Positions 1 to 13,451 of a stretch of 13,451 nucleotides of DNA are shown here, piece after piece (positions within the stretch are counted from its first letter, which is position 1; each line of letters starts with the position of its first letter). The position numbers and the translations under genes are program-made. A model generated the notes under the pieces. It was not told the DNA's origin and made no database searches. It saw nothing but the letters and a program-made list of their open reading frames with translations. Source of the DNA: a virus (lineage: Duplodnaviria; Heunggongvirae; Uroviricota; Caudoviricetes); the IMG/VR virus record IMGVR_UViG_2695420471_000009, one strand, 5' to 3'.

Positions 1-240
1 AAAGAACAAATGGTAGTGTCCGCTATTGCCAGTACACCTCATCCATCACCGAAAAAAATTGGCTTTTACACCATTGGCGATAAAAGCATTTACCTGTATG
101 ACCTACGCCGCATGGATGAAATCATGGAGGCTCTTGATAATCGTTCGTCGATGGATTGGTGTGTTGCTGTTCATGATATGAATGCAGGGTTTGATGAAAA
201 GATTTTGTTCCCCTCATCAGTTGAAAGCACTGCGGGTTAA
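1..240 (+). CDS. Hypothetical prophage protein, C-terminal part (reading frame open from window edge)
   Basis: Frame 1 is open from base 1 to a stop at 238-240 and is followed by closely spaced same-strand genes. No family recognised. Confidence 0.4.
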   Translation, partial: KEQMVVSAIASTPHPSPKKIGFYTIGDKSIYLYDLRRMDEIMEALDNRSSMDWCVAVHDMNAGFDEKILFPSSVESTAG

Positions 241-250
241 GGAGTAACAC

Positions 251-418
251 ATGACCACTATTACCAAAGAACGTATTGAATTGTTCATTAAAAACCCGCT
301 TGAAAACGGGCTTACCCGTGGTGAACAAATGGAACTGGCACGGATTGCGCTGGCATCGCTGGAAGCAGAGCCGGTTGTGTTCTGGTTTGAAAAATATCAA
401 GAAGGGGCTACGGCATGA
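251..418 (+). CDS. Small nin-region protein (55 aa), paralog of the next ORF
   Basis: ATG at 251 with GGAG 9 nt upstream; stop overlaps the next start (ATGA at 415-418). Shares N-terminal MTT-x-T-x-E and IAL-x-SL-x-AEP motifs with ORF 415..759. Confidence 0.5.
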
Positions 419-759
419 CGACTTTTACCAGAGAGCAGTTAATAGCTCACGCAGAGGAGACTATTGAAGCACAGAGACTGTGCATACCGGGCACAATCGA
501 CCATGACATCATCCGCACATATAAGATGGATATTGCTGTTCTGGAAATCGCACTGGTATCGCTGGCAGCAGAGCCAGCCGGTAAATTGCATGAATACAAA
601 CCAGTGGGATATCAGCGTCTGGTCGATGAGTTAACCATGCTGGTAAAGCAGTTAACCTGGCAACTGAGGAAAGCGAAGCCAGACTGCAAATTACCGGATA
701 AGGCGATGAGTTATCTGGAGCGGAACGGACTGATAAGCGTGGAGGATATTTTACGATGA
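415..759 (+). CDS. Small nin-region protein (114 aa), paralog family
   Basis: Translationally coupled to the upstream ORF (ATGA). Motifs MTTFTREQL and [10 protein letters not shown] recur in ORFs 251..418 and 4771..5028. Confidence 0.6.
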
Positions 760-839
760 CCTGGCCTGAAGCATTAACAACGGTAGGAATTGCGATGGCG
801 GTGGCGCTGGTGGTGTATTCGATTTGCCGCTGGGGATAA
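756..839 (+). CDS. Possible 27-aa hydrophobic peptide ([27 protein letters not shown])
   Basis: ATG overlaps the upstream stop (ATGA at 756-759). Single predicted membrane-spanning segment. Too short to call firmly. Confidence 0.25.
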
Positions 840-1050
840 AAACGGTTTGCGGGAAAAGGAGAGTTAAGTAGAATTGCAGCGGGTGCTTGAGGCTATCTGT
901 CTCAGGCATGAACACCAAAAGGCAGATAGAGAAAAGCCCCAGTTAACATTACGCGTCCGGCAAGACGCTTAACATTAATCTGAGGCTCAATCTATGAACG
1001 GCAAATCTAGGTTAGCCTCTTACGTGCCGAAAGGCAAGGAGAAGCAGGCT

Positions 1051-1206
1051 ATGAAGCAGCAAAAGGCGATGTTAATCGCCCTGATCGTCATCTGTTTAAC
1101 CGTCATAGTGACGGCACTGGTAACGAGGAAAGACCTCTGCGAGGTACGAATTCGAACCGGCCAGACGGAGGTCGCTGTCTTCACAGCTTACGAACCTGAG
1201 GAGTAA
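1051..1206 (+). CDS. hokD: Hok/Gef-family type I toxin (51 aa), HokD/RelF-like
   Basis: Sequence MKQQKAMLIALIVICLTVIVTALVTRKDLCEVRIRTGQTEVAVFTAYEPEE has the Hok architecture (short basic N-terminus, one TM helix, conserved Cys, acidic C-terminus) and matches HokD/RelF as I recall it. The overlapping longer frame 994..1206 adds 19 codons, like a mok leader. Confidence 0.8.
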   Translation: MKQQKAMLIALIVICLTVIVTALVTRKDLCEVRIRTGQTEVAVFTAYEPEE

Positions 1207-1276
1207 GAGACCAGGCGGGGGAGAAATCCCTCGCCACCTCTGATGGGTCAGGCATCCTCAATGCACCCACACTTAA

Positions 1277-1300
1277 CCCGCTTCGGCGGGTTTTTGTTTT
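1277..1300 (+). terminator. Rho-independent terminator downstream of hok
   Basis: Stem CCCGC / GCGGG with loop TTCG, followed by TTTTTGTTTTT. Confidence 0.6.
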
Positions 1301-1314
1301 TATTTTCAACGCGT

Positions 1315-1344
1315 TTGAATTTTTAGATGGTGCCGGAATAGAAT
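1315..1344 (+). promoter_or_regulatory. Candidate sigma70 promoter upstream of the rem-like ORF
   Basis: TTGAAT, 18-nt spacer, TAGAAT, about 80 nt upstream of the ATG at 1424. Confidence 0.3.
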
Positions 1345-1423
1345 CAAAAATACTTAAGTAGCGCGCAGGGAGAAGAGGGATGGACCCCGAACAGGGGAGT
1401 GCTATTTATCTGGAAGGATTCTG

Positions 1424-1708
1424 TTGATGAAAATCGAAGAATTACGTGAAATTTTTAGTGAAGATGGCCTCTATACTGTGCGCGTTGAGAATGGCGCTAT
1501 TGTCAGCCACTGCCTTCCAGACTACACAATTCTGATAATTCAGCCGTCTTTGCCAGCAGGCACGGGCGGCGCTCTCACGCATTTAAATCTGATTGGTACC
1601 AGCATCCCCCATGCACTGAAGAACAGGCCGAATGGCTCATTCAGTGTTACCGCAGGCGCGGATGCGAGGTTAAAAAAGCCCTTAGCCTCGACTACCGTCA
1701 CTGGATAA
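1424..1708 (+). CDS. Hypothetical protein (94 aa), rem-like by position
   Basis: ATG-ATG start preceded by GGAAGGA. Sits between hok and the DUF968 gene, as rem does in the Qin-type arrangement. C-terminal half is low complexity; same frame as the downstream ORF, separated by a single TAA. Confidence 0.4.
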   Translation: MMKIEELREIFSEDGLYTVRVENGAIVSHCLPDYTILIIQPSLPAGTGGALTHLNLIGTSIPHALKNRPNGSFSVTAGADARLKKPLASTTVTG

Positions 1709-1783
1709 TCTCCGTCAGGCTCCCTTACTCCGAACGGCCAACGCGTCCGTCCCGCACATTCCAGCAACGGATCTGGAGGTAAT

Positions 1784-2842
1784 GTGCGGGTATTACTTCG
1801 ACCTGTTCTGGTACCGGAACTCGGTCTGGTTATCGTTAAGCCAGGCCGTGAATCAATGTCAGCATTCCATAACGGCAGAATACTGGTGGAGCCGGAACCA
1901 AAAAGCATGCGTAATCTGCCGTCCGGGGTCGTTCCTGCCGCTCGCCAGCCGCTGGTGGAAGACAAAACATTGCTGCCGTTTTTCAGTAACGCACGGGTGA
2001 TTCGTGCTGCTGGTGGTGCTGGTGCATTGTCTGACTGGCTGTTGCGCCATATTAAATCCTGCCAGTGGCCACACGGCGATTATCATCACAGCGAAACCGT
2101 CATTCACCGTTATGGTACCGGCGCAATGGTGTTGTGCTGGCACTGCGACAACCAGCTGCGTGACCAGACATCCGAATCACTCGAGCAACTTGCTCATCAA
2201 AACCTGTCAGCATGGATGATTGACGTCATCGGTCACGCAATAAGCGGTACGCAGGAGCGTGAATTATCTCTGGCTGAATTATCCTGGTGGGCGGTCCGCA
2301 ATCAGGTGGCGGACGCGCTACCGGAAGCGGTATTACGTCGTTCGCTGGGGTTGCGTGCGGAAAAAATTCGCTCTGTGTACAGTGAAAGCGACATCATACC
2401 GGGAGAGCAGACAGCCACCAGCATACTGAAGCAGCGCACAAAAAATATTGCGTTACTGCCTCACGTCCACCAGCAACAGAACCCACCACAGGAAAAGACG
2501 GTGGTCAGCATTGCCGTTGATCCGGAGTCACCGGCTCAGTATCTCCAGCGCCAGAAATCACAACGGGAAGAGATGCCTGTATACACGCGCTGGGTAAAAA
2601 CGCAGAAATGCATGACGTGTGGCAATCAGGCAGATGATCCGCATCACATCATTGGTCATGGACTGGGAGGGATGGGAACAAAGGCTGATGATTTGTTTGT
2701 TATTCCGTTATGCCGTAAATGCCGTAACGAACTACATGCCGGAGTAAAAGATTTTGAAGAGAAACACGGCAGTCAGCTGTTGTTGCTGATTCGTTTTTTA
2801 ATGCACGCGAGAAATTCGGGTGTTCTGAAGTGGAAAGCATAA
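1784..2842 (+). CDS. DUF968/YdfU-like prophage protein with C-terminal HNH-like zinc-finger motif
   Basis: 352-codon ORF; track start is GTG at 1784, first ATG at 1856. C-terminal CMTCGN...DPHHIIGHG...IPLCRKCRNELH resembles an HNH/Zn-finger nuclease signature. Stop abuts the rusA start (TAAATG). Confidence 0.7.
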   Translation: MRVLLRPVLVPELGLVIVKPGRESMSAFHNGRILVEPEPKSMRNLPSGVVPAARQPLVEDKTLLPFFSNARVIRAAGGAGALSDWLLRHIKSCQWPHGDYHHSETVIHRYGTGAMVLCWHCDNQLRDQTSESLEQLAHQNLSAWMIDVIGHAISGTQERELSLAELSWWAVRNQVADALPEAVLRRSLGLRAEKIRSVYSESDIIPGEQTATSILKQRTKNIALLPHVHQQQNPPQEKTVVSIAVDPESPAQYLQRQKSQREEMPVYTRWVKTQKCMTCGNQADDPHHIIGHGLGGMGTKADDLFVIPLCRKCRNELHAGVKDFEEKHGSQLLLLIRFLMHARNSGVLKWKA

Positions 2843-3223
2843 ATGACCGAGCGCATAGAATTTGTTTTACCTTACCCGCCGACGGTGAACACTTACTGGC
2901 GTCGTCGTGGCAGCACATATTTTGTATCAAAAGCCGGGGAGCGTTATCGCCGGGCAGTGGCGCTTATTGTTCGCCAGCAGCGGCTGAAATTAAGCCTGTC
3001 CGGAAGGTTGGCAATAAAAATTATTGCAGAACCACCGGATAAGCGCCGCCGTGACCTGGACAATATTCTGAAAGCGCCGCTGGATGCGCTGACGCATGCG
3101 GGGTTGCTAATGGACGATGAGCAGTTTGATGAAATCAATATCGTTCGTGCTCAGCCAGTATCTGGTGGACGTCTGGGGGTGAAGATTTATCCCATAATGC
3201 TTGAAGGGCAGGTCAAAAAATGA
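2843..3223 (+). CDS. rusA: RusA-family Holliday junction resolvase (copy 1)
   Basis: 126 aa with LPYPPTVNTYWRRR and DKRRRDLDN (acidic catalytic cluster) motifs typical of RusA. Stop overlaps the next start (ATGA). Confidence 0.9.
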   Translation: MTERIEFVLPYPPTVNTYWRRRGSTYFVSKAGERYRRAVALIVRQQRLKLSLSGRLAIKIIAEPPDKRRRDLDNILKAPLDALTHAGLLMDDEQFDEINIVRAQPVSGGRLGVKIYPIMLEGQVKK

Positions 3224-3318
3224 AACTGGAAGATTTACCGAAATACTACTCCCCAAAATCCCCCGGCCTGACTGATGCATCGGCCTCAACGTCGAAAGAT
3301 GCGCTGAGTATCACTGAT
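3220..3318 (+). pseudogene. 5' fragment of Q-like antiterminator gene, interrupted by IS2
   Basis: First 33 codons (MKLEDLPKYYSPKSPGLTDASASTSKDALSITD) match the start of the intact copies at 5399 and 6526. The reading frame runs into the IS2 end at 3320; base 3319 is N. Confidence 0.7.
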
Positions 3319-3330
3319 NTGGATTTGCCC

Positions 3331-4236
3331 CTATATTTCCAGACATCTGTTATCACTTAACCCATTACAAGCCCGCTGCCGCAGATATTCCCGTGGCGAG
3401 CGATAACCCAGCGCACTATGCGGATGCCATTCGTTATAATGCTCGAACGCCTCTGCAAGGTTCTTTGCTGCCGTTAACCCGTCTGGTTTGGGCATGATAC
3501 TGATGTAGTCACGCTTTATCGTTTTCACGAAGCTCTCTGCTATTCCGTTACTCTCCGGACTCCGCACCGCCGTGTTCTTCGGTTCAAGTCCCAACATCCG
3601 GGCGAACTGGCGTGTTTCATTAGCCCGGTAGCATGAACCATTATCCGTCAGCCACTCCACTGGAGACGACGGAAGATCGTTGCCGAAGCGGCGTTCCACC
3701 GCTCCCAGCATGACGTCCTGTACTGTTTCACTGTTGAAGCCGCCGGTAGTCACCGCCCAGTGCAGTGCCTCACGATCACAGCAGTCCAGCGCGAACGTGA
3801 CACGCAGTCTCTCTCCGTTATCACAGCAGAACTCGAACCCGTCAGAGCACCATCGCTGATTGCTTTCTTTCACGGCCACTCTGCCTGTATGTGCCCGTTT
3901 CGATGGCGGTACAGCAGGTTTTCGCTCAAGCAACAGCGCATTCTGGCGCATGATCCGGTAAACACGTTTGGCATTGATCGCAGGCATACCATCAAGTTCT
4001 GCCTGTCTGCGAAGCAGCGCCCATACCCGACGATAACCATACGTGGGCAGCTCTCCGATAACATGGTGTATACGGAGAAGCACATCCGTATCATCAGTGT
4101 GACGACTGCGGCGGCCATCCATCCAGTCATCGGTTCGTCTGAGAATGACGTGCAACTGCGCACGCGACACCCGGAGACAACGGCTGACTAAGCTTACTCC
4201 CCATCCCCGGGCAATAAGGGCGCGTGCGCTATCCAC
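3331..4236 (-). CDS. insD: IS2 transposase OrfB (InsD), DDE catalytic domain
   Basis: 301-codon frame with GTG start, overlapping insC in the -1 frame. Sequence is typical of IS3-family OrfB. Confidence 0.85.
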
Positions 4237-4559
4237 TTTTTTGCCCGTCCATATTCAACGGCTTCTTTGAGGAGTTCATTTTCCATCGTTTTCTTGCCGA
4301 GCAGGCGCTGGAGTTCTTTAATCTGCTTCATGGCGGCAGCAAGTTCAGAGGCAGGAACAACCTGTTCTCCGGCGGCGACAGCAGTAAGACTTCCTTCCTG
4401 GTATTGCTTACGCCAGAGAAATAACTGGCTGGCTGCTACACCATGTTGCCGGGCAACGAGGGAGACCGTCATCCCCGGTTCAAAGCTCTGCTGAACAATT
4501 GCGATCTTTTCCTGTGTGGTACGCCGTCTGCGTTTCTCCGGCCCTAAGACATCAATCAT
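4194..4559 (-). CDS. insC: IS2 OrfA (InsC), HTH DNA-binding/regulatory protein
   Basis: 121 aa starting [18 protein letters not shown] at the ATG at 4559 on the minus strand (track ORF extends upstream to 4604). Helix-turn-helix and leucine-zipper-like segment. Confidence 0.85.
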
Positions 4560-4770
4560 CTGTACTCCAATGACTAGTCTAAAAACTAGTATTAAGACTA
4601 TCACTTATTTAAGTGATACTGGTTGTCTGGAGATTCAGGGGGCCAGTCTACGGACATTTTCTGCCTGTGGACCAGGAAAGTGCACGGGTGCTTTCCACTC
4701 CCATGAAGCCCGGCAATCCGCGCAGATACAGTAATAAACGAACTGACAGCAGTAAGATGGAGCGTTTCTT

Positions 4771-5028
4771 TTGAACAACCAGACAATGACTTTTACCCCT
4801 GAACAATTGCGTAAACACGCGCAGGAAATGCTGCGTCATGCTGAACAACTCGAAAAAACGGGCATAACAAAAGACGCTATCCGTAAAGATATGGTACCCG
4901 CGCTTCGGGAACTGATGCAGGCGAAGCATCGCGCACAGAAAGCAGTAGATGAGCTGGTGGACTGTGTGGCAGAGCTGGAAACCAGAGTCGGAAAGTTTGA
5001 AAAACTGGTGCAGGAGGTGCTGCGCTGA
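4771..5028 (+). CDS. Small nin-region protein (85 aa), same paralog family as 415..759
   Basis: N-terminus MTFTPEQLRKHAQE parallels [15 protein letters not shown] of ORF 415..759. Stop overlaps the rusA copy 2 start (TGATG). An alternative start is the ATG at 4786. Confidence 0.5.
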   Translation: MNNQTMTFTPEQLRKHAQEMLRHAEQLEKTGITKDAIRKDMVPALRELMQAKHRAQKAVDELVDCVAELETRVGKFEKLVQEVLR

Positions 5029-5402
5029 TGCGCCATGAGTTTATTTTACCTTATCCGCCGACGGTGAATACTTACTGGCGACGTCGTGACAACACATATT
5101 TTGTATCAAAAGCCGGTGAGCGTTATCGCCGGGATGTGGCGCTTATTGTCCGTCAGCAGCGACTGAAATTAAGCCTGTCCGGAAGACTGGCGATAAAGAT
5201 TATTGCAGAGCCACCGGATAAGCGCCGTCGTGACCTGGACAATATCCTGAAAGCACCACTGGATGCACTGACACATGCGGGAGTGTTAATGGACGATGAG
5301 CAGTTTGATGAAATCAATATCGTTCGTGCTCAGCCAGTATCTGGTGGACGTCTGGGGGTGAAGATTTACCCCATAATGCATGAAGAGCAGGTCAAAAAAT
5401 GA
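5028..5402 (+). CDS. rusA: RusA-family Holliday junction resolvase (copy 2, distinct allele)
   Basis: 124 aa, about 90% identical to copy 1, with differences at the N-terminus and C-terminus (HEEQ versus LEGQ). Confidence 0.85.
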   Translation: MRHEFILPYPPTVNTYWRRRDNTYFVSKAGERYRRDVALIVRQQRLKLSLSGRLAIKIIAEPPDKRRRDLDNILKAPLDALTHAGVLMDDEQFDEINIVRAQPVSGGRLGVKIYPIMHEEQVKK

Positions 5403-6218
5403 AACTGGAAGATTTACCGAAATACTACTCCCCAAAATCCCCTTGCCTGACCGATGCATCGGCCTCAACGTCAAAAGATGCGCTGAGTATCACTGATGTG
5501 ATGGCCGCGCAGGGCATGACACAGAATCGGGCTGAGATGGGGGTTTCTGCGTTCCTTGGGAAAATGGGCATTAGTATGAATGACAGAGAGCGGGCAACAG
5601 AATTGCTGACAGAATATGCACTCAGTCGGTGTGATCGCGTGGCGGCGTTAAGAAAACTCCCGGCAGAAATAAAACCGGCAGTGATGCGTATTATGGCTTC
5701 GTATGCGTTTGAAGATTATGCCCGTAGCGCGGCGAGCAAAAAACAGTGCCCCTGCTGTCACGGAAAAAAATTTATTGAAAGCGAGGTTTTTACAAACAAG
5801 ATCCAGTATCCGGATGGTAAGCCGCCGGTATGGGCAAAGTGTACGAAAGGTGTGTATCCGTCTTACTGGGAAGAATGGAAAAAAGTCAGGGAGGTGGTAA
5901 AAGTTGCCTGTCCGGAGTGTGGCGGAAAGGGTGAGGTTTCCACCGCCTGTAAGGATTGCCGTGGGCGTGGTGTCGCCATTCATCGTGAAGAGTCGGTAAA
6001 ACGTGGTATGCCTGTTATCAGAGACTGCCAGCGTTGTGGTGGTCGTGGCTATGAAAGACTACCATCAACGGAGGCATTTAATGCTATATGCGAGGTGACA
6101 AACCAGATAACACGCGCGTCATGGGAAAAAACAGTTAAGAAATTCTATGATGCGCTGGTGACTCGGTTTGATATTGAAGAAGCATGGGCTGAGCGGCAGT
6201 TAAAAAAGGTAACTAGGT
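5399..6218 (+). CDS. Q-like late antiterminator candidate (copy 2); 3' end runs into an N junction
   Basis: Same protein as 6526..7347 with several substitutions. At N 6219 the frame continues into rusA internal sequence, which creates the 376-aa track ORF. This is a join artefact or recombination point, not a natural fusion. Confidence 0.55.
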
Positions 6219-6219
6219 N

Positions 6220-6529
6220 CACATATTTTGTATCAAAAGCCGGTGAGCGTTATCGCCGGGATGTGGCGCTTATTGTCCGTCAGCAGCGACTGAAATTAAG
6301 CCTGTCCGGAAGACTGGCGATAAAGATTATTGCAGAGCCACCGGATAAGCGCCGTCGTGACCTGGACAATATCCTGAAAGCACCACTGGATGCACTGACA
6401 CATGCGGGAGTGTTAATGGACGATGAGCAGTTTGATGAAATCAATATCGTTCGTGGTCAGCCAGTATCTGGTGGACGTCTGGGGGTGAAGATTTACCCCA
6501 TAATGCATGAAGAGCAGGTCAAAAAATGA
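6220..6529 (+). pseudogene. RusA 3' fragment (copy 3), beginning at the N junction
   Basis: Encodes RusA residues from TYFVSKAGERY to the C-terminus. No start codon or 5' part is present. Confidence 0.6.
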
Positions 6530-7347
6530 AACTGGAAGATTTACCGAAATACTACTCCCCAAAATCCCCTTGCCTGACCGATGCATCGGCCTCAACGTCA
6601 AAAGATGCGCTGAGTATCACTGATGTGATGGCCGCGCAGGGCATGACACAGAATCGGGCTGAGATGGGGTTTTCTGCGTTCCTGGGGAAAATGGGCATCA
6701 GTATGAATGACAGGGCGCGGGCAACAGAATTACTGGCAGATTATGCACTCAGTCGGTGCGATCGTGTGGCGGCGTTGAGAAAACTTCCGGCAGAAATAAA
6801 ACCGGTAGTGATGCGCATTATGGCTTCGTACGCTTTTGAGGATTATGCCCGCAGCGCAGCGAGTAAAAAGCAGTGCCCTTGTTGCTATGGGGAAAAATTT
6901 ATTGAAAGCGTAGTTTTTACAAACAAGGTCCAGTATCCGGATGGTAAGCCGCCGGTATGGGCAAAGTGTACGAAAGGTGTGTATCCGTCTTACTGGGAAG
7001 AATGGAAAAAAGTCAGGGAGGTGGTAAAAGTTGCCTGTCCGGAGTGTGGCGGAAAGGGTGAGGTTTCCACCGCCTGTAAGGATTGCCGTGGGCGTGGTGT
7101 CGCCATTCATCGTGAAGAGTCGGTAAAACGTGGTATGCCTGTTATCAGAGACTGCCAGCGTTGTGGTGGTCGTGGCTATGAAAGACTACCATCAACGGAG
7201 GCATTTAATGCTATATGCGAGGTGACAAACCAGATAACACGCGCGTCATGGGAAAAAACAGTTAAGAAATTCTATGATGCGCTGGTGACTCGGTTTGATA
7301 TTGAAGAAGCATGGGCTGAGCGGCAGTTAAAAAAGGTAACTAGGTAA
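6526..7347 (+). CDS. Q-like late-gene antiterminator candidate (273 aa) with four DnaJ-type CxxCxGxG zinc-finger repeats
   Basis: Lies after rusA and immediately upstream of a lambda-type pR' promoter, pause element and tR' terminator. Repeats CPCCYGEK, CPECGGKG, CKDCRGRG, CQRCGGRG. Q assignment is by position and context, not by recognised homology. Confidence 0.65.
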   Translation: MKLEDLPKYYSPKSPCLTDASASTSKDALSITDVMAAQGMTQNRAEMGFSAFLGKMGISMNDRARATELLADYALSRCDRVAALRKLPAEIKPVVMRIMASYAFEDYARSAASKKQCPCCYGEKFIESVVFTNKVQYPDGKPPVWAKCTKGVYPSYWEEWKKVREVVKVACPECGGKGEVSTACKDCRGRGVAIHREESVKRGMPVIRDCQRCGGRGYERLPSTEAFNAICEVTNQITRASWEKTVKKFYDALVTRFDIEEAWAERQLKKVTR

Positions 7348-7352
7348 CAAGG

Positions 7353-7380
7353 TTGATTTTTCCGGAATCTGTGGTAAATT
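7353..7380 (+). promoter_or_regulatory. Late promoter pR'-like (TTGATT, 16-nt spacer, TAAATT) with downstream AACGAT pause element at 7387-7392
   Basis: Resembles lambda pR', which has a GGTAAATT -10 region and an AACGAT sigma70-dependent pause element in the initial transcribed region. Lies 6 nt after the Q-like stop. Confidence 0.6.
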
Positions 7381-7386
7381 CGTCAT

Positions 7387-7452
7387 AACGATGGGCGTTT
7401 TATGCCTGACGTTAGAAGAGTTTCTACAACCCGCCGCCGAGCGGGTTTTTTA
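7387..7452 (+). ncRNA. Short pR'-to-tR' terminated transcript (lambda 6S-like / StxS-like candidate)
   Basis: Inferred from promoter and terminator positions only. The start coordinate is a guess. Confidence 0.35.
7429..7452 (+). terminator. tR'-like intrinsic terminator
   Basis: Stem CCCGC / GCGGG with loop CGCCGA, followed by TTTTTTAT. Confidence 0.65.
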
Positions 7453-7571
7453 TGACTGAAATCGCGTCAGTACAGTAAACGCGCTGGTGGCGGTGAATAC
7501 CTGTCTTTCAGCTTGCTGGCTTTTTCGACAAGAGTTATTGGTGTGTCACGTTAACCGGAAAAGGAAAAGAC

Positions 7572-7769
7572 ATGCTAAAACAGCAGGATATGACAGAAAC
7601 CGCCAGAGTGGTGTTTAATGAATTAAGCGTTACCGAACCGGCGACAGTCGGGGAGATAGCGCAGAATACTTACCTTTCACGCGAACGCTGCCAGTTAATA
7701 CTGACCCAGCTGGTTATGGCGGGTCTGGCAGACTATCAGTTCGGTTGTTACAGACGCCTTCCGCAGTGA
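7572..7769 (+). CDS. Hypothetical 65-aa protein, possible small winged-helix/HTH
   Basis: Good RBS (AAGGAAAAG, 4-nt spacer, ATG). Stop lies within a terminator hairpin. No family recognised. Confidence 0.5.
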   Translation: MLKQQDMTETARVVFNELSVTEPATVGEIAQNTYLSRERCQLILTQLVMAGLADYQFGCYRRLPQ

Positions 7770-7780
7770 AGGCTTTTTTA
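7756..7780 (+). terminator. Intrinsic terminator overlapping the stop of the 65-aa ORF
   Basis: Stem GCCTTC / GAAGGC with loop CGCAGT, followed by TTTTTTATTT. Confidence 0.5.
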
Positions 7781-7796
7781 TTTGTGGTAAATGGGC

Positions 7797-7827
7797 GGCT
7801 GGTGGGTGTTAGGGGCACCCACCAGCC
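7797..7827. repeat. Perfect 12-bp inverted repeat (GGCTGGTGGGTG / CACCCACCAGCC) with 7-nt loop, upstream of the methyltransferase
   Basis: Seen directly; no T-run follows, so it is not a classic terminator. The second repeat copy begins inside this loop, right after the N run. Confidence 0.5.
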
Positions 7828-7919
7828 ATCTGCTCATGCGTTGGGTTCACAAGCAAACCTCAGGCCCACTGCTTTGCGCAAAAGCAGAATGAGCCTATCA
7901 GAGACAGGCTTAATGATCC

Positions 7920-8978
7920 ATGCTTAATACTGTAAAAATATCCAGTTGTGAGTTAATCAACGCCGACTGCCTGGAATTTATCCGGTCGTTACCCGAAAAT
8001 TCTGTTGACCTGATAGTCACGGACCCGCCGTACTTTAAAGTGAAGCCTGAGGGCTGGGATAACCAGTGGAAGGGCGACGATGATTACCTGAAGTGGCTGG
8101 ACCAGTGTCTGGCGCAGTTCTGGCGGGTGCTGAAACCTGCCGGAAGTCTTTACCTGTTCTGTGGTCATCGCCTGGCATCTGATATCGAAATCATGATGCG
8201 TGAACGCTTCAGTGTGCTGAACCATATTATCTGGGCGAAGCCGTCCGGACGCTGGAACGGATGCAACAAGGAAAGCCTGCGGGCGTATTTCCCCGCCACA
8301 GAGCGCATTCTGTTCGCGGAACATTATCAGGGGCCGTATCGTCCGAAAGATGCCGGGTATGCGGCGAAGGGCAGTGCACTGAAACAGCATGTGATGGCCC
8401 CGCTGATTTCTTACTTTCGTGATGCGCGAGCTGCCCTGGGGATAACGGCAAAACAGATTGCAGATGCCACAGGAAAGAAAAACATGGTGTCGCACTGGTT
8501 CAGTGCCGGTCAGTGGCAGTTGCCGAATGAAAGCGATTATCTGAAATTACAGGCGCTGTTTGCCCGGGTGGCAGAAGAGAAGCATCGGCGTGGTGAACTG
8601 GAAAAGCTCCACCACCAGCTGGTGGATACGTATACCTCACTGAACCGGCAGTATGCGGAGCTGCTGAGTGAATATAAACATCTGCGGCGGTATTTTGGCG
8701 TGACGGTGCAGGTGCCGTATACCGATGTGTGGACGCATAAACCGGTGCAGTTCTATCCCGGGAAACATCCGTGCGAAAAACCGGCAGAAATGCTGCAGCA
8801 GATAATCAGCGCTAGCAGTCGTCCGGGTGACCTGATTGCAGATTTTTTCATGGGGTTGGGTTCGACAGTGAAAGCGGCACTGGCGCTCGGGCGTCGTGCA
8901 ATTGGCGTTGAGCTGGAGACTGAACGTTTTGAGCAGACGGTTCGGGAAGTACAGGATTTAGTCAGCCAGAACGGATGA
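7920..8978 (+). CDS. DNA methyltransferase, beta-class N6-adenine/N4-cytosine type (copy 1)
   Basis: DPPY catalytic motif (TDPPYF) near the N-terminus and AdoMet motif FxGxGS (DFFMGLGST) near the C-terminus. This motif order defines the beta class. No restriction endonuclease gene is adjacent. Confidence 0.85.
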   Translation: MLNTVKISSCELINADCLEFIRSLPENSVDLIVTDPPYFKVKPEGWDNQWKGDDDYLKWLDQCLAQFWRVLKPAGSLYLFCGHRLASDIEIMMRERFSVLNHIIWAKPSGRWNGCNKESLRAYFPATERILFAEHYQGPYRPKDAGYAAKGSALKQHVMAPLISYFRDARAALGITAKQIADATGKKNMVSHWFSAGQWQLPNESDYLKLQALFARVAEEKHRRGELEKLHHQLVDTYTSLNRQYAELLSEYKHLRRYFGVTVQVPYTDVWTHKPVQFYPGKHPCEKPAEMLQQIISASSRPGDLIADFFMGLGSTVKAALALGRRAIGVELETERFEQTVREVQDLVSQNG

Positions 8979-9018
8979 TATTGAAGAATTAATTACGCGT
9001 CGTTATTATGCGGCTCCC

Positions 9019-9094
9019 GGCCCTTTAGCTCAGTGGTGAGAGCGAGCGACTCATAATCGCCAGGTCGCTGGTTCAAATCCAGCAAGGGCCACCA
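9019..9094 (+). tRNA. ileZ: tRNA with CAU anticodon (Met or lysidine-Ile2), ileZ-like
   Basis: Cloverleaf: acceptor GGCCCTT / AAGGGCC, D-arm GCTC...GAGC, anticodon loop CTCATAA, T-arm GCTGG TTCAAAT CCAGC, then A-CCA. Confidence 0.8.
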
Positions 9095-9101
9095 TCACAT
9101 A

Positions 9102-9178
9102 CCGCCATTAGCTCATCAGGAAAGAGCGCCAGCCTTCGAAGCTGGCTGCGCGGGGTTCAAGTCCCCGATGGCGGTCCA
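9102..9178 (+). tRNA. argN: tRNA-Arg (anticodon UCG), argN-like
   Basis: Acceptor CCGCCAT / ATGGCGG, anticodon arm CCAGC CTTCGAA GCTGG, T-arm CGGGG TTCAAGT CCCCG, then CCA. Confidence 0.75.
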
Positions 9179-9191
9179 TTATCTGCATCAT

Positions 9192-9268
9192 GCGTTGTTA
9201 GCTCAGCCGGACAGAGCAATTGCCTTCTAAGCAATCGGTCACTGGTTCGAATCCAGTACAACGCGCCA
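9192..9268 (+). tRNA. argO: tRNA-Arg (anticodon UCU), argO-like
   Basis: Acceptor GCGTTGT / ACAACGC, anticodon arm ATTGC CTTCTAA GCAAT, T-arm ACTGG TTCGAAT CCAGT, then G-CCA. Confidence 0.8.
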
Positions 9269-9282
9269 CACTTATTTTCCCT

Positions 9283-9308
9283 GGCTCGCTTTTGCGGGCC
9301 TTTTTTTT
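9283..9308 (+). terminator. Intrinsic terminator after the tRNA triplet
   Basis: Stem GGCTCGC / GCGGGCC (one G-U pair) with loop TTTT, followed by eight T. Confidence 0.6.
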
Positions 9309-9314
9309 AAATGT

Positions 9315-9527
9315 CTCACAATTCAGACGGTTGACAGTTGTCTGTTTTGCGGGGAGTTTGTTAAAAGAAACTGGCATGGTGAATCCCCCTGTGCGGAGGG
9401 GCAATCAGCGAGTAGGTATATGGGATAATCGCGGATTCAGGTGCTGGTACTGAATTCACCGGGAGGCACCCGGCATCATGCAATGGCACATAGCGCCACT
9501 CTCCAGCCCTCTCCGGAGGGGCTTTTC
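9315..9527 (+). repeat. Conserved ~215-bp GC-rich structured element downstream of tRNAs (copy A)
   Basis: Three copies in the window, with TTGACA near the 5' end and a GC hairpin plus T-rich tail at the 3' end. Copy A has a weaker 3' hairpin and is followed by the N junction at 9546. Confidence 0.5.
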
Positions 9528-9546
9528 TGTGCCGGATACATCACAG

Positions 9547-9607
9547 TTTCTGGAANCGGTTTGATATTGAAGAAGCATGGGCTGAGCGGCAGTTAAAAAA
9601 GGTAACT
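9547..9607 (+). pseudogene. 3' fragment of a third-allele Q-like gene, beginning at the N junction
   Basis: Encodes ...FDIEEAWAERQLKKVTR. A 7-bp deletion relative to 7341-7350 removes the TAA stop. Confidence 0.5.
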
Positions 9608-9610
9608 AGG

Positions 9611-9638
9611 TTGATTTTTCCGGAATCTGTGGTAAATT
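9611..9638 (+). promoter_or_regulatory. pR'-like late promoter (second copy), pause element variant AACTAT
   Basis: TTGATT, 16-nt spacer, TAAATT. Pause hexamer at 9645-9650 reads AACTAT instead of AACGAT. Confidence 0.55.
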
Positions 9639-9686
9639 CGTCATAACTATGGGCGTTTTATGCCTGACGTTAGAAGAGTTTCTACA

Positions 9687-9710
9687 ACCCGCCGCCGAGC
9701 GGGTTTTTTA
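9687..9710 (+). terminator. tR'-like terminator (second copy)
   Basis: Same CCCGC / GCGGG hairpin and T6 tract as at 7429. Confidence 0.6.
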
Positions 9711-9748
9711 TTGCGGAATTAATTACGGACCGTTATTATTCTGCTCCC

Positions 9749-9824
9749 GGCCCTTTAGCTCAGTGGTGAGAGCGAGCGACTCATAATCGCCAGGTCGCTG
9801 GTTCAAATCCAGCAAGGGCCACCA
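9749..9824 (+). tRNA. ileZ: tRNA with CAU anticodon (ileZ-like), copy 2
   Basis: Identical to 9019..9094. Here it sits directly after tR' with no 65-aa ORF or methyltransferase in between, as in Stx-type phages. Confidence 0.8.
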
Positions 9825-9831
9825 TCACAAA

Positions 9832-9911
9832 CCGCCATTAGCTTATCAGGAAGAGCAGACGACACGATAACAGGGTTGTTGGTGCGGGGGCGGGTCCCCG
9901 ATGGCGGTCCA
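9832..9911 (+). pseudogene. Degenerate argN-like tRNA (anticodon arm replaced, non-canonical T-loop)
   Basis: Acceptor and D-arm match tRNA-Arg(UCG), but the region between D-arm and T-stem is unrelated and the T-loop lacks TTCRA. Confidence 0.5.
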
Positions 9912-9924
9912 TTATCGGTATTCA

Positions 9925-10001
9925 GCGTTGTTAGCTCAGCCGGACAGAGCAATTGCCTTCTAAGCAATCGGTCACTGGTTCGAATCCAGTACAGCGCGCC
10001 A
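9925..10001 (+). tRNA. argO: tRNA-Arg (anticodon UCU), argO-like, variant with G-U pair in acceptor stem
   Basis: Same as 9192..9268 except the 3' acceptor strand reads ACAGCGC (A to G change gives a T-G wobble). Confidence 0.7.
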
Positions 10002-10111
10002 TATTCATTCTTCCAGATTCCTTCCGGCAGAGCCTTATACTGAAATATACCTGGCTCAGGATATTGTTGAAAATATTTTATGTTTGTCAAAAATAAAAGT
10101 TCTGTTAAGTA

Positions 10112-10465
10112 TTGATTGAGTGTTTGTTATACGGTCTAATGGTTTTTTCAGCATTAAATATTTATCATTCATATGGTGTGGGTAGAGTGAATATTGATGA
10201 GGCGTCGGGGTGTTTCATCCTTAGGCAGCGTATTGATATAGTCAATGCAGCACGAGCAAAGGCCTTCAGCCGTTTGACAGTTTTGTTCTGTACTCCTGAT
10301 CGTCTTTCGGGAAGAGACGTTATTATTCTGAATAGTGATGCTATACAGAGGGTTTGCGATGAGTTCATGGTTGCTAATTCAGAATTATTTGCTCTTGTTC
10401 AGGAGTACAACAGAATAGCCAGGACCTGTGGTATGGATGAACTTCGGATTACTCATCTGGGGTAG
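10112..10465 (+). CDS. Hypothetical protein in the variable insert downstream of argO (start uncertain)
   Basis: Track ORF starts at TTG; first ATG is 10139 with no clear SD. Lies in a unique 650-bp segment absent from the other two tRNA-downstream copies. No family recognised. Confidence 0.3.
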   Translation: MIECLLYGLMVFSALNIYHSYGVGRVNIDEASGCFILRQRIDIVNAARAKAFSRLTVLFCTPDRLSGRDVIILNSDAIQRVCDEFMVANSELFALVQEYNRIARTCGMDELRITHLG

Positions 10466-10668
10466 ATACATATCTGGATTATCACCTGTTACGGTAAAAA
10501 GTGATTGCTTACTGTTTTTGTGAATGGCATTGCAGCAGCCGGATAATGTCAGTGCTGGCTGACGGTGTGCTGGTGGCGGGTGTGGTGGTTGTTGCTTTCC
10601 CGTTGCTGAAAAAGAAAACGCCAGACTGTTAGCCGGGTATCAGTTAGCGGGAGAAATTTTTAAATACT

Positions 10669-10893
10669 TCACAATTCAGGCGGTTGACTGTTGTCTGGTT
10701 TGCGGGGAGTTTGTTAAAAGAAACTGGCATGGTGAATCCCCCTGTGCGGAGGGGCAATCAGCGAGTAGGTATATGGGATAATCGCGGATTCAGGTGCTGG
10801 TACTGAATTCACCGGGAGGCACCCGGCACCATGCAATGGCACATAGCGCCACTCTCCAGCCCCTCTCCGGAGGGGCTGTTTATATTGATTTTG
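10669..10893 (+). repeat. Conserved GC-rich structured element downstream of tRNAs (copy B, divergent)
   Basis: Homologous to 9315..9527 and 12450..12675 with scattered substitutions (TTGACT instead of TTGACA). Ends with a perfect 8-bp hairpin and T-rich tail. Confidence 0.5.
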
Positions 10894-10934
10894 TCAGATG
10901 TGAGTAAACTCCTTATGGACTAAAACAACAAAGT

Positions 10935-10944
10935 NNNNNNNNNN
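10935..10944. other. Assembly gap (10 N)
   Basis: Run of N. Both flanks end inside inverted-repeat hairpins. Confidence 0.95.
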
Positions 10945-11054
10945 TAGGGGCACCCACCAGCCATCTGCTCATGCGTTGGGTTCACAAGCAAACCTCAGGC
11001 CCACTGCTTTGCGCAAAAGCAGAATGAGCCTATCAGAGACAGGCTTAATGATCC

Positions 11055-12113
11055 ATGCTTAATACTGTAAAAATATCCAGTTGTGAGTTAATCAACGCCG
11101 ACTGCCTGGAATTTATCCGGTCGTTACCCGAAAATTCTGTTGACCTGATAGTCACGGACCCGCCGTACTTTAAAGTGAAGCCTGAGGGCTGGGATAACCA
11201 GTGGAAGGGCGACGATGATTACCTGAAGTGGCTGGACCAGTGTCTGGCGCAGTTCTGGCGGGTGCTGAAACCTGCCGGAAGTCTTTACCTGTTCTGTGGT
11301 CATCGCCTGGCATCTGATATCGAAATCATGATGCGTGAACGCTTCAGTGTGCTGAACCATATTATCTGGGCGAAGCCGTCCGGACGCTGGAACGGATGCA
11401 ACAAGGAAAGCCTGCGGGCGTATTTCCCCGCCACAGAGCGCATTCTGTTCGCGGAACATTATCAGGGGCCGTATCGTCCGAAAGATGCCGGGTATGCGGC
11501 GAAGGGCAGTGCACTGAAACAGCATGTGATGGCCCCGCTGATTTCTTACTTTCGTGATGCGCGAGCTGCCCTGGGGATAACGGCAAAACAGATTGCAGAT
11601 GCCACAGGAAAGAAAAACATGGTGTCGCACTGGTTCAGTGCCGGTCAGTGGCAGTTGCCGAATGAAAGCGATTATCTGAAATTACAGGCGCTGTTTGCCC
11701 GGGTGGCAGAAGAGAAGCATCGGCGTGGTGAACTGGAAAAGCTCCACCACCAGCTGGTGGATACGTATACCTCACTGAACCGGCAGTATGCGGAGCTGCT
11801 GAGTGAATATAAACATCTGCGGCGGTATTTTGGCGTGACGGTGCAGGTGCCGTATACCGATGTGTGGACGCATAAACCGGTGCAGTTCTATCCCGGGAAA
11901 CATCCGTGCGAAAAACCGGCAGAAATGCTGCAGCAGATAATCAGCGCTAGCAGTCGTCCGGGTGACCTGATTGCAGATTTTTTCATGGGGTTGGGTTCGA
12001 CAGTGAAAGCGGCACTGGCGCTCGGGCGTCGTGCAATTGGCGTTGAGCTGGAGACTGAACGTTTTGAGCAGACGGTTCGGGAAGTACAGGATTTAGTCAG
12101 CCAGAACGGATGA
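11055..12113 (+). CDS. DNA methyltransferase, beta-class (copy 2, identical to 7920..8978)
   Basis: Identical 352-aa translation. Part of a ~1.7-kb exact repeat (7810..9500 matches 10945..12635, offset 3135). Confidence 0.85.
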   Translation: MLNTVKISSCELINADCLEFIRSLPENSVDLIVTDPPYFKVKPEGWDNQWKGDDDYLKWLDQCLAQFWRVLKPAGSLYLFCGHRLASDIEIMMRERFSVLNHIIWAKPSGRWNGCNKESLRAYFPATERILFAEHYQGPYRPKDAGYAAKGSALKQHVMAPLISYFRDARAALGITAKQIADATGKKNMVSHWFSAGQWQLPNESDYLKLQALFARVAEEKHRRGELEKLHHQLVDTYTSLNRQYAELLSEYKHLRRYFGVTVQVPYTDVWTHKPVQFYPGKHPCEKPAEMLQQIISASSRPGDLIADFFMGLGSTVKAALALGRRAIGVELETERFEQTVREVQDLVSQNG

Positions 12114-12153
12114 TATTGAAGAATTAATTACGCGTCGTTATTATGCGGCTCCC

Positions 12154-12229
12154 GGCCCTTTAGCTCAGTGGTGAGAGCGAGCGACTCATAATCGCCAGGT
12201 CGCTGGTTCAAATCCAGCAAGGGCCACCA
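12154..12229 (+). tRNA. ileZ: tRNA with CAU anticodon (ileZ-like), copy 3
   Basis: Identical to 9019..9094. Confidence 0.8.
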
Positions 12230-12236
12230 TCACATA

Positions 12237-12313
12237 CCGCCATTAGCTCATCAGGAAAGAGCGCCAGCCTTCGAAGCTGGCTGCGCGGGGTTCAAGTCCC
12301 CGATGGCGGTCCA
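12237..12313 (+). tRNA. argN: tRNA-Arg (UCG), copy 3
   Basis: Identical to 9102..9178. Confidence 0.75.
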
Positions 12314-12326
12314 TTATCTGCATCAT

Positions 12327-12403
12327 GCGTTGTTAGCTCAGCCGGACAGAGCAATTGCCTTCTAAGCAATCGGTCACTGGTTCGAATCCAGTACAACGCG
12401 CCA
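12327..12403 (+). tRNA. argO: tRNA-Arg (UCU), copy 3
   Basis: Identical to 9192..9268. Confidence 0.8.
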
Positions 12404-12417
12404 CACTTATTTTCCCT

Positions 12418-12443
12418 GGCTCGCTTTTGCGGGCCTTTTTTTT
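12418..12443 (+). terminator. Intrinsic terminator after tRNA triplet (copy 3)
   Basis: Identical to 9283..9308. Confidence 0.6.
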
Positions 12444-12449
12444 AAATGT

Positions 12450-12675
12450 CTCACAATTCAGACGGTTGACAGTTGTCTGTTTTGCGGGGAGTTTGTTAAA
12501 AGAAACTGGCATGGTGAATCCCCCTGTGCGGAGGGGCAATCAGCGAGTAGGTATATGGGATAATCGCGGATTCAGGTGCTGGTACTGAATTCACCGGGAG
12601 GCACCCGGCACCATGCAATGGCACATAGCGCCACTCTCCAGCCCCTCTCCGGAGGGGCTGTTTATATTGATTTTG
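12450..12675 (+). repeat. Conserved GC-rich structured element downstream of tRNAs (copy C)
   Basis: TTGACA at 12466; 3' hairpin AGCCCCTC TCCG GAGGGGCT at 12640..12659 followed by a T-rich tail. Confidence 0.5.
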
Positions 12676-12691
12676 TCAGATGTGAGTAAAC

Positions 12692-12725
12692 TCCTTATGG
12701 ACTTTGTTGTTTTAGTCCATAAGGA
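12692..12725. repeat. Perfect 11-bp inverted repeat (TCCTTATGGAC / GTCCATAAGGA) with 12-nt loop
   Basis: Seen directly. Marks the boundary between the GC-rich element and the AT-rich island. Confidence 0.5.
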
Positions 12726-13030
12726 CATATTTGCAGAGTGCAACGGTTATTAAAGCATTCATTCAATACGTTATCTGTATTTGTAGGGCATTCCTGGCTA
12801 TTTTTGATTGAATTCCAGAATGTTTTATTGAATGGTACTACGTTGTAAATGGTTACAGGTAGCACTTTGTTATTGAGCATGATGCCTGTGTGAGTCAGTG
12901 TAAATATACTTTCAGGAGGTAAGAAAGCATCCGATTGATACCAGATTATTAATTTTATTTTACTCCATATGACTGAAAAAGATATTCCGCATGATGGCTG
13001 GATAACTGTATCAATCACAATCCACTTCAT
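12695..13030 (-). CDS. Hypothetical 111-aa protein on the reverse strand within an AT-rich island
   Basis: ATG at 13030 preceded by AAGGAA SD (5-nt spacer) and a TTTACA / TATACT promoter-like pair. A 111-codon open frame is unlikely by chance in DNA this AT-rich. No family recognised. Confidence 0.45.
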
Positions 13031-13290
13031 TTAGTTTCCTTGTTTATGCCTTGCTGGTGATGTTCTGAAAAGTATAAATGATATTTTTGAATGTAAACCA
13101 TAGAGCAGAATTATTTTTCTGATGTTGTTTATTGTTTATTTAAATGCAGGGTGGTTTATATCTCGTCTTGTAGTTTATCCATGCATATCTGCTTGATAAT
13201 CAGGTTTTTATTTAAGGTATGGTTTTGTGTTTTTTCTGTATTACATGTCAGGTATTTTAAAGAATTATTTTTCAGATGGTGGAAAGAACC

Positions 13291-13451
13291 ATGGCATTTA
13301 AACACTATGATGTTGTCAGGGCGGCGCCGCCGTCAGATCTTGCGGAAAAGCTGACACATAAACTGAAAGAGGGCTGGCAGCCGTTTGGTAGTCCGGTGGC
13401 CATAACCCCTTATACCCTGAGGTGTACTGGCAATAGCGGACACTACCATTT
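13291..13451 (+). CDS. Conserved prophage hypothetical protein, N-terminal part (continues beyond window)
   Basis: ATG at 13291; frame open to the window edge (MAFKHYDVVRAAPPSDLAEKLTHKLKEGWQPFGSPV...). GC content returns to the prophage-backbone level. Probably the first gene of the lysis-proximal late region. Confidence 0.55.
   Translation, partial: MAFKHYDVVRAAPPSDLAEKLTHKLKEGWQPFGSPVAITPYTLRCTGNSGHYH

Follow-up and report, generated by a model that had tools for sequence, protein, structure and literature searches.

Gene content and block structure of the locus

The window, that is, the whole stretch of 13,451 nt that was analyzed, holds prophage genes together with an IS2 element and is interrupted by four runs of N (3319, 6219, 9556 and 10935–10944). 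Exact-sequence comparison revealed that it is identical to CXAW01000147.1 of GCA_001254155.1, a draft WGS scaffold; since this record matches the window over the full 13,451 nt, the window is one entire draft scaffold. Its parts are as follows.

Blocks between the N runs: A, 1–3318; B, 3320–6218; C, 6220–9555; D, 9557–10934; E, 10945–13451
1–41: terminal part of an IS3-family element; the scaffold starts inside the element, an inverted copy of which is at 13418–13451
1–3318, plus strand: block A, left part of remnant P1, with hok, Rem, DUF968, rusA copy 1 and the first 33 codons of Q
2843–3223, plus strand: rusA copy 1, 126 aa, P1 type (Pfam RusA, E = 1.5e-16)
3220–3318, plus strand: first 33 codons of the Q antiterminator gene of P1, a contig-end fragment
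3319: single N between blocks A and B, a scaffold gap placeholder
3320–4650, minus strand: IS2 (IS3 family), 1331 bp, with 99.9% identity from end to end to annotated E. coli IS2 copies
3331–4236, minus strand: IS2 orfB (Pfam HTH_21, rve and rve_3)
4194–4604, minus strand: IS2 orfA (Pfam HTH_Tnp_1)
4651–4655: right copy of the 5-bp target duplication of IS2, CGGAC; the left copy is absent from the scaffold
4651–4774, plus strand: 3'-terminal 41 codons (stop included) of a prophage gene for a replicative DNA helicase, DnaB_C type
4771–5028, plus strand: 85-aa ORF of remnant P2
5028–5402, plus strand: rusA copy 2, 124 aa, P2 type
5399–6218, plus strand: mosaic Q gene in block B (P2 to 5473, P1 = P2 in 5474–5542, P1 in 5543–5801, P2 at 6145 and 6163)
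6219: single N, the second scaffold gap, which yields a false 376-aa Q::RusA fusion ORF (5399–6529)

Self-comparison of the window showed that homology is broken at every block boundary and that the blocks are mutually paralogous: positions 5093–6218 in B and 6220–7345 in C are 97.2% identical, positions 7810–9526 in C and 10945–12663 in E are 99.8% identical, and the final 55 nt of B are the same as the initial 55 nt of D. The blocks derive from two paralogous prophage remnants, P1 and P2. A reading of the N joins as overlapping contig ends that had been left unmerged was rejected, because the copies of the repeat in B and C differ at 32 sites.

Both ends of the scaffold lie inside an IS3-family terminal repeat, positions 8–41 being the reverse complement of 13418–13451, and an IS3-family transposase gene of 385 aa stops 3 nt short of the position equivalent to window base 1 in closed genomes. 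At the N of position 6219, the fusion ORF combines residues 1–273 of a Q antiterminator with the C-terminal part of RusA. The public record lists this ORF among its genes, and an exact-sequence look-up matched GCA_001254155.1 alone; when placed on complete E. coli genomes, the halves of the join fall in permuted order within one 1126-nt rusA–Q unit. The fusion ORF is an artefact of the scaffold join at 6219.

The IS2 element as deposited

In the deposited letters, the IS2 copy has both of its ends and both ORFs, as the first-pass annotation had stated. A single A6G slippery site (AAAAAAG) lies in the orfA/orfB overlap at 4236–4242 (IS2 nt 409), and the imperfect terminal inverted repeats have arms of 33 nt at 3328–3360 and 4609–4641 that are 79% complementary. 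The 5-bp flanks in the scaffold are TGATN (3315–3319) and CGGAC (4651–4655), with no visible duplication; the earlier description of these flanks is likewise true of the deposited sequence. The median number of IS2 sites per E. coli genome is 4.

In the closed relatives that carry an IS2 with the same right junction (7 of 7; their loci are given below), an IS21-family element lies inside this IS2 copy (positions 1661–3725 of locus L014), with 47 nt corresponding to window 4449–4495 replaced. The inserted element has an istA-like gene of 390 aa and an istB-like gene of 265 aa, and no left end was recognizable. Because all seven relatives contain it while the IS2 of the scaffold is uninterrupted, the presence of a complete IS2 at this very locus is not secure; the uninterrupted form may reflect a strain difference or a collapsed consensus of other IS2 copies.

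When the query covered window 4400–4668 (query 1–269), many unrelated IS2 copies of E. coli aligned for ~18 nt beyond the end of IS2 into the flank. This overrun may be a chance extension or may represent a preferred target sequence.

The Q gene of remnant P1

Block A is 99.94% identical to the closed-genome P1 loci L006 and L023. Its terminal Q fragment of 33 codons gave no Pfam match on its own and differs by one residue from the N-termini of both full Q copies in the window, which match PF03589 (5399–6218, within ORF 5399–6529, E = 4e-55; 6526–7347, E = 6e-55). The P1 locus was read in 12 closed or near-closed relatives (L006, L010 and L023–L032), among whose sources CP022672 is Shigella sonnei strain 866 (PMC6128377). 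In all 12, an exact match to the final 118 nt of block A runs straight on into the remainder of an intact 273-aa Q. The sequence that continues the fragment there is GTGATGGCC (longer form, GTGATGGCCGCGCAGG...), and CACTGATGTGATGGCC with P1 alleles would mark an intact P1 Q. IS2 was absent from all 10 of the 13-kb P1 loci examined.

Positions 3220–3318 are a contig-end piece of Q and not a truncated gene. Two copies of one IS3-family element enclose remnant P1, whose Q is intact in the closed relatives. An insertion of IS2 behind codon 33 of Q is not supported: the base between fragment and element is the N at 3319, and Q is intact in 12 of 12 P1 loci. With the P1 Q of the closed relatives intact, the headline reading of the first-pass annotation, late-gene silencing by truncation of Q, is unsupported.

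The last base of block A is Q nt 99, which falls in a stretch of 69 nt (Q nt 76–144) in which P1 and P2 are identical. On either side of this shared stretch, the P1 alleles are G at 3294 and G at 5543.

The IS2 target site in the helicase gene of remnant P2

The C-terminal helicase translation at 4651–4774 is identical to that of the closed-genome gene, and the 463-aa helicase is intact in loci L016 and L020. IS2-filled P2 loci sharing the right junction of the window as a 34-mer were found in closed or near-closed chromosomes (L013–L015, L017, L018, L021 and L022). With a slash marking each junction, the filled site reads ...TTTATAACGGAC/IS2/CGGACATTTT in 7 of 7 of these loci, with CGGAC on both sides; the left junction, also in 7 of 7, is TTTATAACGGAC/TGGATTTGCC, or in longer form ...GGCGTTTTTATAACGGAC/TGGATTTGCCCC. 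The empty site (L002, L016, L019 and L020) has a single CGGAC and reads ...TTTATAACGGACATTTT (longer form, ...GGCGTTTTTATAACGGACATTTTCTG...). The presence of CGGAC on both flanks of IS2 in all seven filled loci indicates a simple insertion with a perfect 5-bp duplication. The real target of IS2 is the 3' end of the P2 replicative-helicase gene, reached by ordinary transposition, and closed genomes already have this insertion. The suggestion that the duplication is missing as a result of IS2-mediated deletion or recombination is not supported, since the closed relatives have both CGGAC copies.

To the left of IS2, the closed genomes have 41 nt of the helicase gene and then the end of another IS3-family element. 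Loss of this 41-nt unique piece between two repeats during short-read assembly would account for the exact coincidence of the start of block B with the IS2 terminus. The distance between P1 and P2 is 654–660 kb on the same chromosome (CP104423.1 and CBDDMI010000001.1).

In L014, positions 432–491, presumably the opposite end of the same type of IS3-family element, adjoin the 41-nt helicase remnant; these positions and the element ends at window 1–41 and 13418–13451 are all of a kind that we take to be IS600-type. The P1 and P2 remnants are both boxed in by IS copies.

Allele composition of the blocks

The blocks of the window were scored at ~80 sites that separate P1 from P2 in closed genomes. 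Block A showed the P1 allele at every diagnostic site. Block B carried P2 alleles in 5034–5473 with one exception (5329), P1 alleles at 31 of 31 sites in 5543–5801, and P2 alleles again at 6145 and 6163. Block C was P2 throughout its rusA–Q part and 100% P1 in 7454–9555. Note that the 55-nt overlap between B and D corresponds to the spacing of two diagnostic sites and gives no k-mer size for the assembler.

The switch from P2 to P1 in block B falls in 5474–5542, the same 69-nt stretch that holds the end of block A, and the P1-allele part of the block B Q gene is preceded by uninterrupted Q sequence. The right flank of IS2 had been described as leading into the 85-aa ORF and then rusA copy 2, which is correct; the accompanying statement that it does not lead into the rest of Q is half right, in that the "missing" remainder of block A's Q is located farther on, at ~5498–6144, and 5474–6144 has no mismatch to the closed-genome P1 Q.

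The exception at 5329 is a lone P1-type C within P2-type sequence, with the nearest P2 alleles 43 nt upstream and 40 nt downstream, and the equivalent position in block C (6456) has the P2 base. Mixed reads that led to a wrong consensus base, a patch of gene conversion or a third copy could each account for this odd allele. It counts against a simple two-locus tangle, which leaves 5329 unexplained. A search for a third rusA–Q locus showed that the Q protein of block C is widespread in E. coli prophages.

The P2 Q gene of the closed relatives (L013, 4629–5483) encodes 284 aa, since the stop codon of the other copies is altered (TG instead of AA). In block C, the P2-type Q ends with a P1-type stop (7346–7347) and encodes 273 aa; this stop marks another switch point between P1 and P2.

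Searches for the junction between Q and IS2

The junction between the Q fragment and IS2 in the scaffold reads ...GAGTATCACTGAT/TGGATTTGCCCC, where the end of block A, CACTGAT, stands against the IS2 terminus TGGATTTG with the N between them. This junction was present in none of 5,426 complete E. coli genomes, and exact-pattern scans gave no match to it in GTDB species representatives or in JGI metagenomes. The duplication-bearing IS2 junction likewise gave no match in an exact-pattern scan of GTDB species representatives, and the right IS2 junction of the window was spanned in none of the 5,426 complete E. coli genomes searched.

The only complete E. coli genome spanning the left-junction query was GPEC1405 (NZ_CM142774.1), in which the insertion is at a different, later position of Q. 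This genome served as a positive control: it contains a genuine IS2-like insertion in a prophage Q gene (L001, 3729–5059; 97.6% identical) after ~193 codons of Q, with a GTCGC target duplication and the remaining Q directly downstream of the IS. Both halves of this Q are annotated as parts of a pseudogene.

Origin of the Q–N–IS2 adjacency

We consider it very probable (roughly 90%) that the adjacency of the Q fragment, the N and IS2 is a scaffolding artefact of a short-read draft assembly and not an insertion. In closed genomes of the same lineage, the adjoining pieces, from P1 and P2, map to separate loci. An assembly join had been named earlier as one alternative on the basis of the N at 3319, and this alternative is the one favored: the record is a draft scaffold, an N stands at each block break, and P1 and P2 are far apart.

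The following course of assembly would account for the structure. The isolate, most likely Shigella sonnei or a very close relative, would carry two decayed lambdoid remnants with paralogous rusA–Q modules and would match the closed relatives at P1 and P2, and the assembler would have been unable to separate the P1 and P2 copies of Q. The P1 contig (block A) would have stopped at a dead end 24 nt into the 69-nt stretch in which P1 and P2 are identical, and the P2 contig (block B) would have started at the end of IS2, beyond which the various IS2 copies have different flanks. Within the same identical stretch, block B would have taken the wrong outgoing path and crossed from P2 into the Q of P1. 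A read-pair scaffolder would then have placed A before B, presumably because the mates of A fall in the P1-type part of B, and, being unable to overlap them, would have written a placeholder of one N. In SSPACE output, a single n stands for a negative gap. The end of block A lies 24 nt inside the shared stretch, at neither of its edges, and this weighs against the proposed course; it is compatible with a k-mer overlap of 24. The 24-nt overhang would fit k = 25, and we derive no particular assembler from it. A further point against this course is the uninterrupted IS2 of the scaffold, which implies either that the isolate departs from the seven closed relatives at this site or that a collapsed consensus was written.

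A different account is that two real IS2 insertions were collapsed into one: a strain-specific copy in the Q gene of P1, and the copy that the lineage shares in the helicase gene of P2. The insertion in Q would follow codon 33 with a duplication of CTGAT or similar, so that the left junction would belong to Q and the right junction to the helicase gene. Block A is indeed flush with the IS2 terminus and does not stop at an edge of the stretch shared by P1 and P2, IS2 is a multi-copy element, and real IS2-like insertions in Q genes exist, as in GPEC1405. However, the flushness is uninformative, because the start of block B at the IS2 end has a separate cause and any contig placed ahead of it would look flush, and the junction itself lacks a determined base (N at 3319). 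Furthermore, the P1-allele remainder of Q in block B is preceded by uninterrupted Q and not by the other end of IS2, the related P1 loci have an intact Q without exception, and the junction occurs in no collection searched (E. coli complete genomes, GTDB representatives and JGI metagenomes). An extra IS2 in Q would also leave the three further N joins of the scaffold to be accounted for in some other way. We therefore regard two collapsed insertions as improbable.

The mismatch between the flanks, TGATN and CGGAC, could also be read as a real rearrangement, in which an IS2 in the Q of P1 recombined with its counterpart in the helicase gene of P2 or in which IS2 mediated an adjacent deletion. 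IS-mediated inversions and deletions are frequent in Shigella. This reading starts from an IS2 in Q that was not observed, and it requires a large inversion or deletion, given the 654–660 kb between P1 and P2 in the closed relatives; in addition, the remaining Q of P1 and its downstream genes are still in the same scaffold. The three remaining N joins show the same discontinuity, and for at least one of them the product is a nonsensical gene fusion; with all four joins discontinuous, scaffolding is the simplest common cause. Such a rearrangement is very improbable in our view. The same can be said of the version confined to a single isolate, for which we see hardly any likelihood, where recombination between a strain-specific IS2 in Q and the helicase IS2 inverted or deleted a large part of the chromosome and the resulting junction was captured in the scaffold.

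Comparison with known insertions and false joins

IS2 truncating Q without a target duplication is not a real feature. What the locus shares with a simple IS2 insertion is the element itself (1331 bp, 99.9% identity, orfA/orfB, A6G, the rve (DDE) domain and imperfect terminal repeats) and, in the closed relatives, CGGAC on both sides at the identical site. It differs in that the scaffold has neither the left-hand CGGAC nor the genuine left flank (41 nt of helicase gene and the IS end), and in that the copy of the closed relatives carries the IS21-family element replacing 47 nt (window 4449–4495). The disruption of Q in GPEC1405 is similar to the window in that an IS2-like element adjoins the 5' part of a PF03589-type Q after rusA; however, in GPEC1405 the two halves of Q flank the IS, a GTCGC duplication is present and the sequence is continuous, whereas the window has none of these.

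The scaffold also resembles the false joins known from scaffolders: runs of N stand exactly at the breaks between blocks of paralogous repeats, the joined pieces are 654–660 kb apart in closed genomes, and sequence is duplicated on either side of the gaps. In a published pipeline of Velvet, SSPACE and GapFiller, N gaps are placed where read pairs join contigs, and false joins by these greedy programs are warned of; S. sonnei was the most fragmented species in that pipeline, with a mean of 405 contigs (PMC5320598). This pipeline is cited as an example of the kind.

Short-read scaffolds of genomes rich in IS elements and prophages, such as those of Shigella, can abut paralogous prophage pieces through a single N, and caution is needed because these joins mimic gene truncations, insertions without duplication, tandem duplications and fusion genes. 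The biology that underlies the present case is routine prophage decay, with IS2 in the helicase gene and later IS elements around and into IS2.

A further duplication was observed in the distal part of the scaffold. The N6_N4_Mtase methylase gene (352 aa) occurs twice in the window, at 7920–8978 and 11055–12113, on either side of N gaps. The regions that contain it (7810–9526 and 10945–12663, 99.8% identity) correspond to a single copy in the closed-genome P1. The second methylase region in the scaffold probably came from scaffolding or gap filling, the alternative being a second genomic copy.
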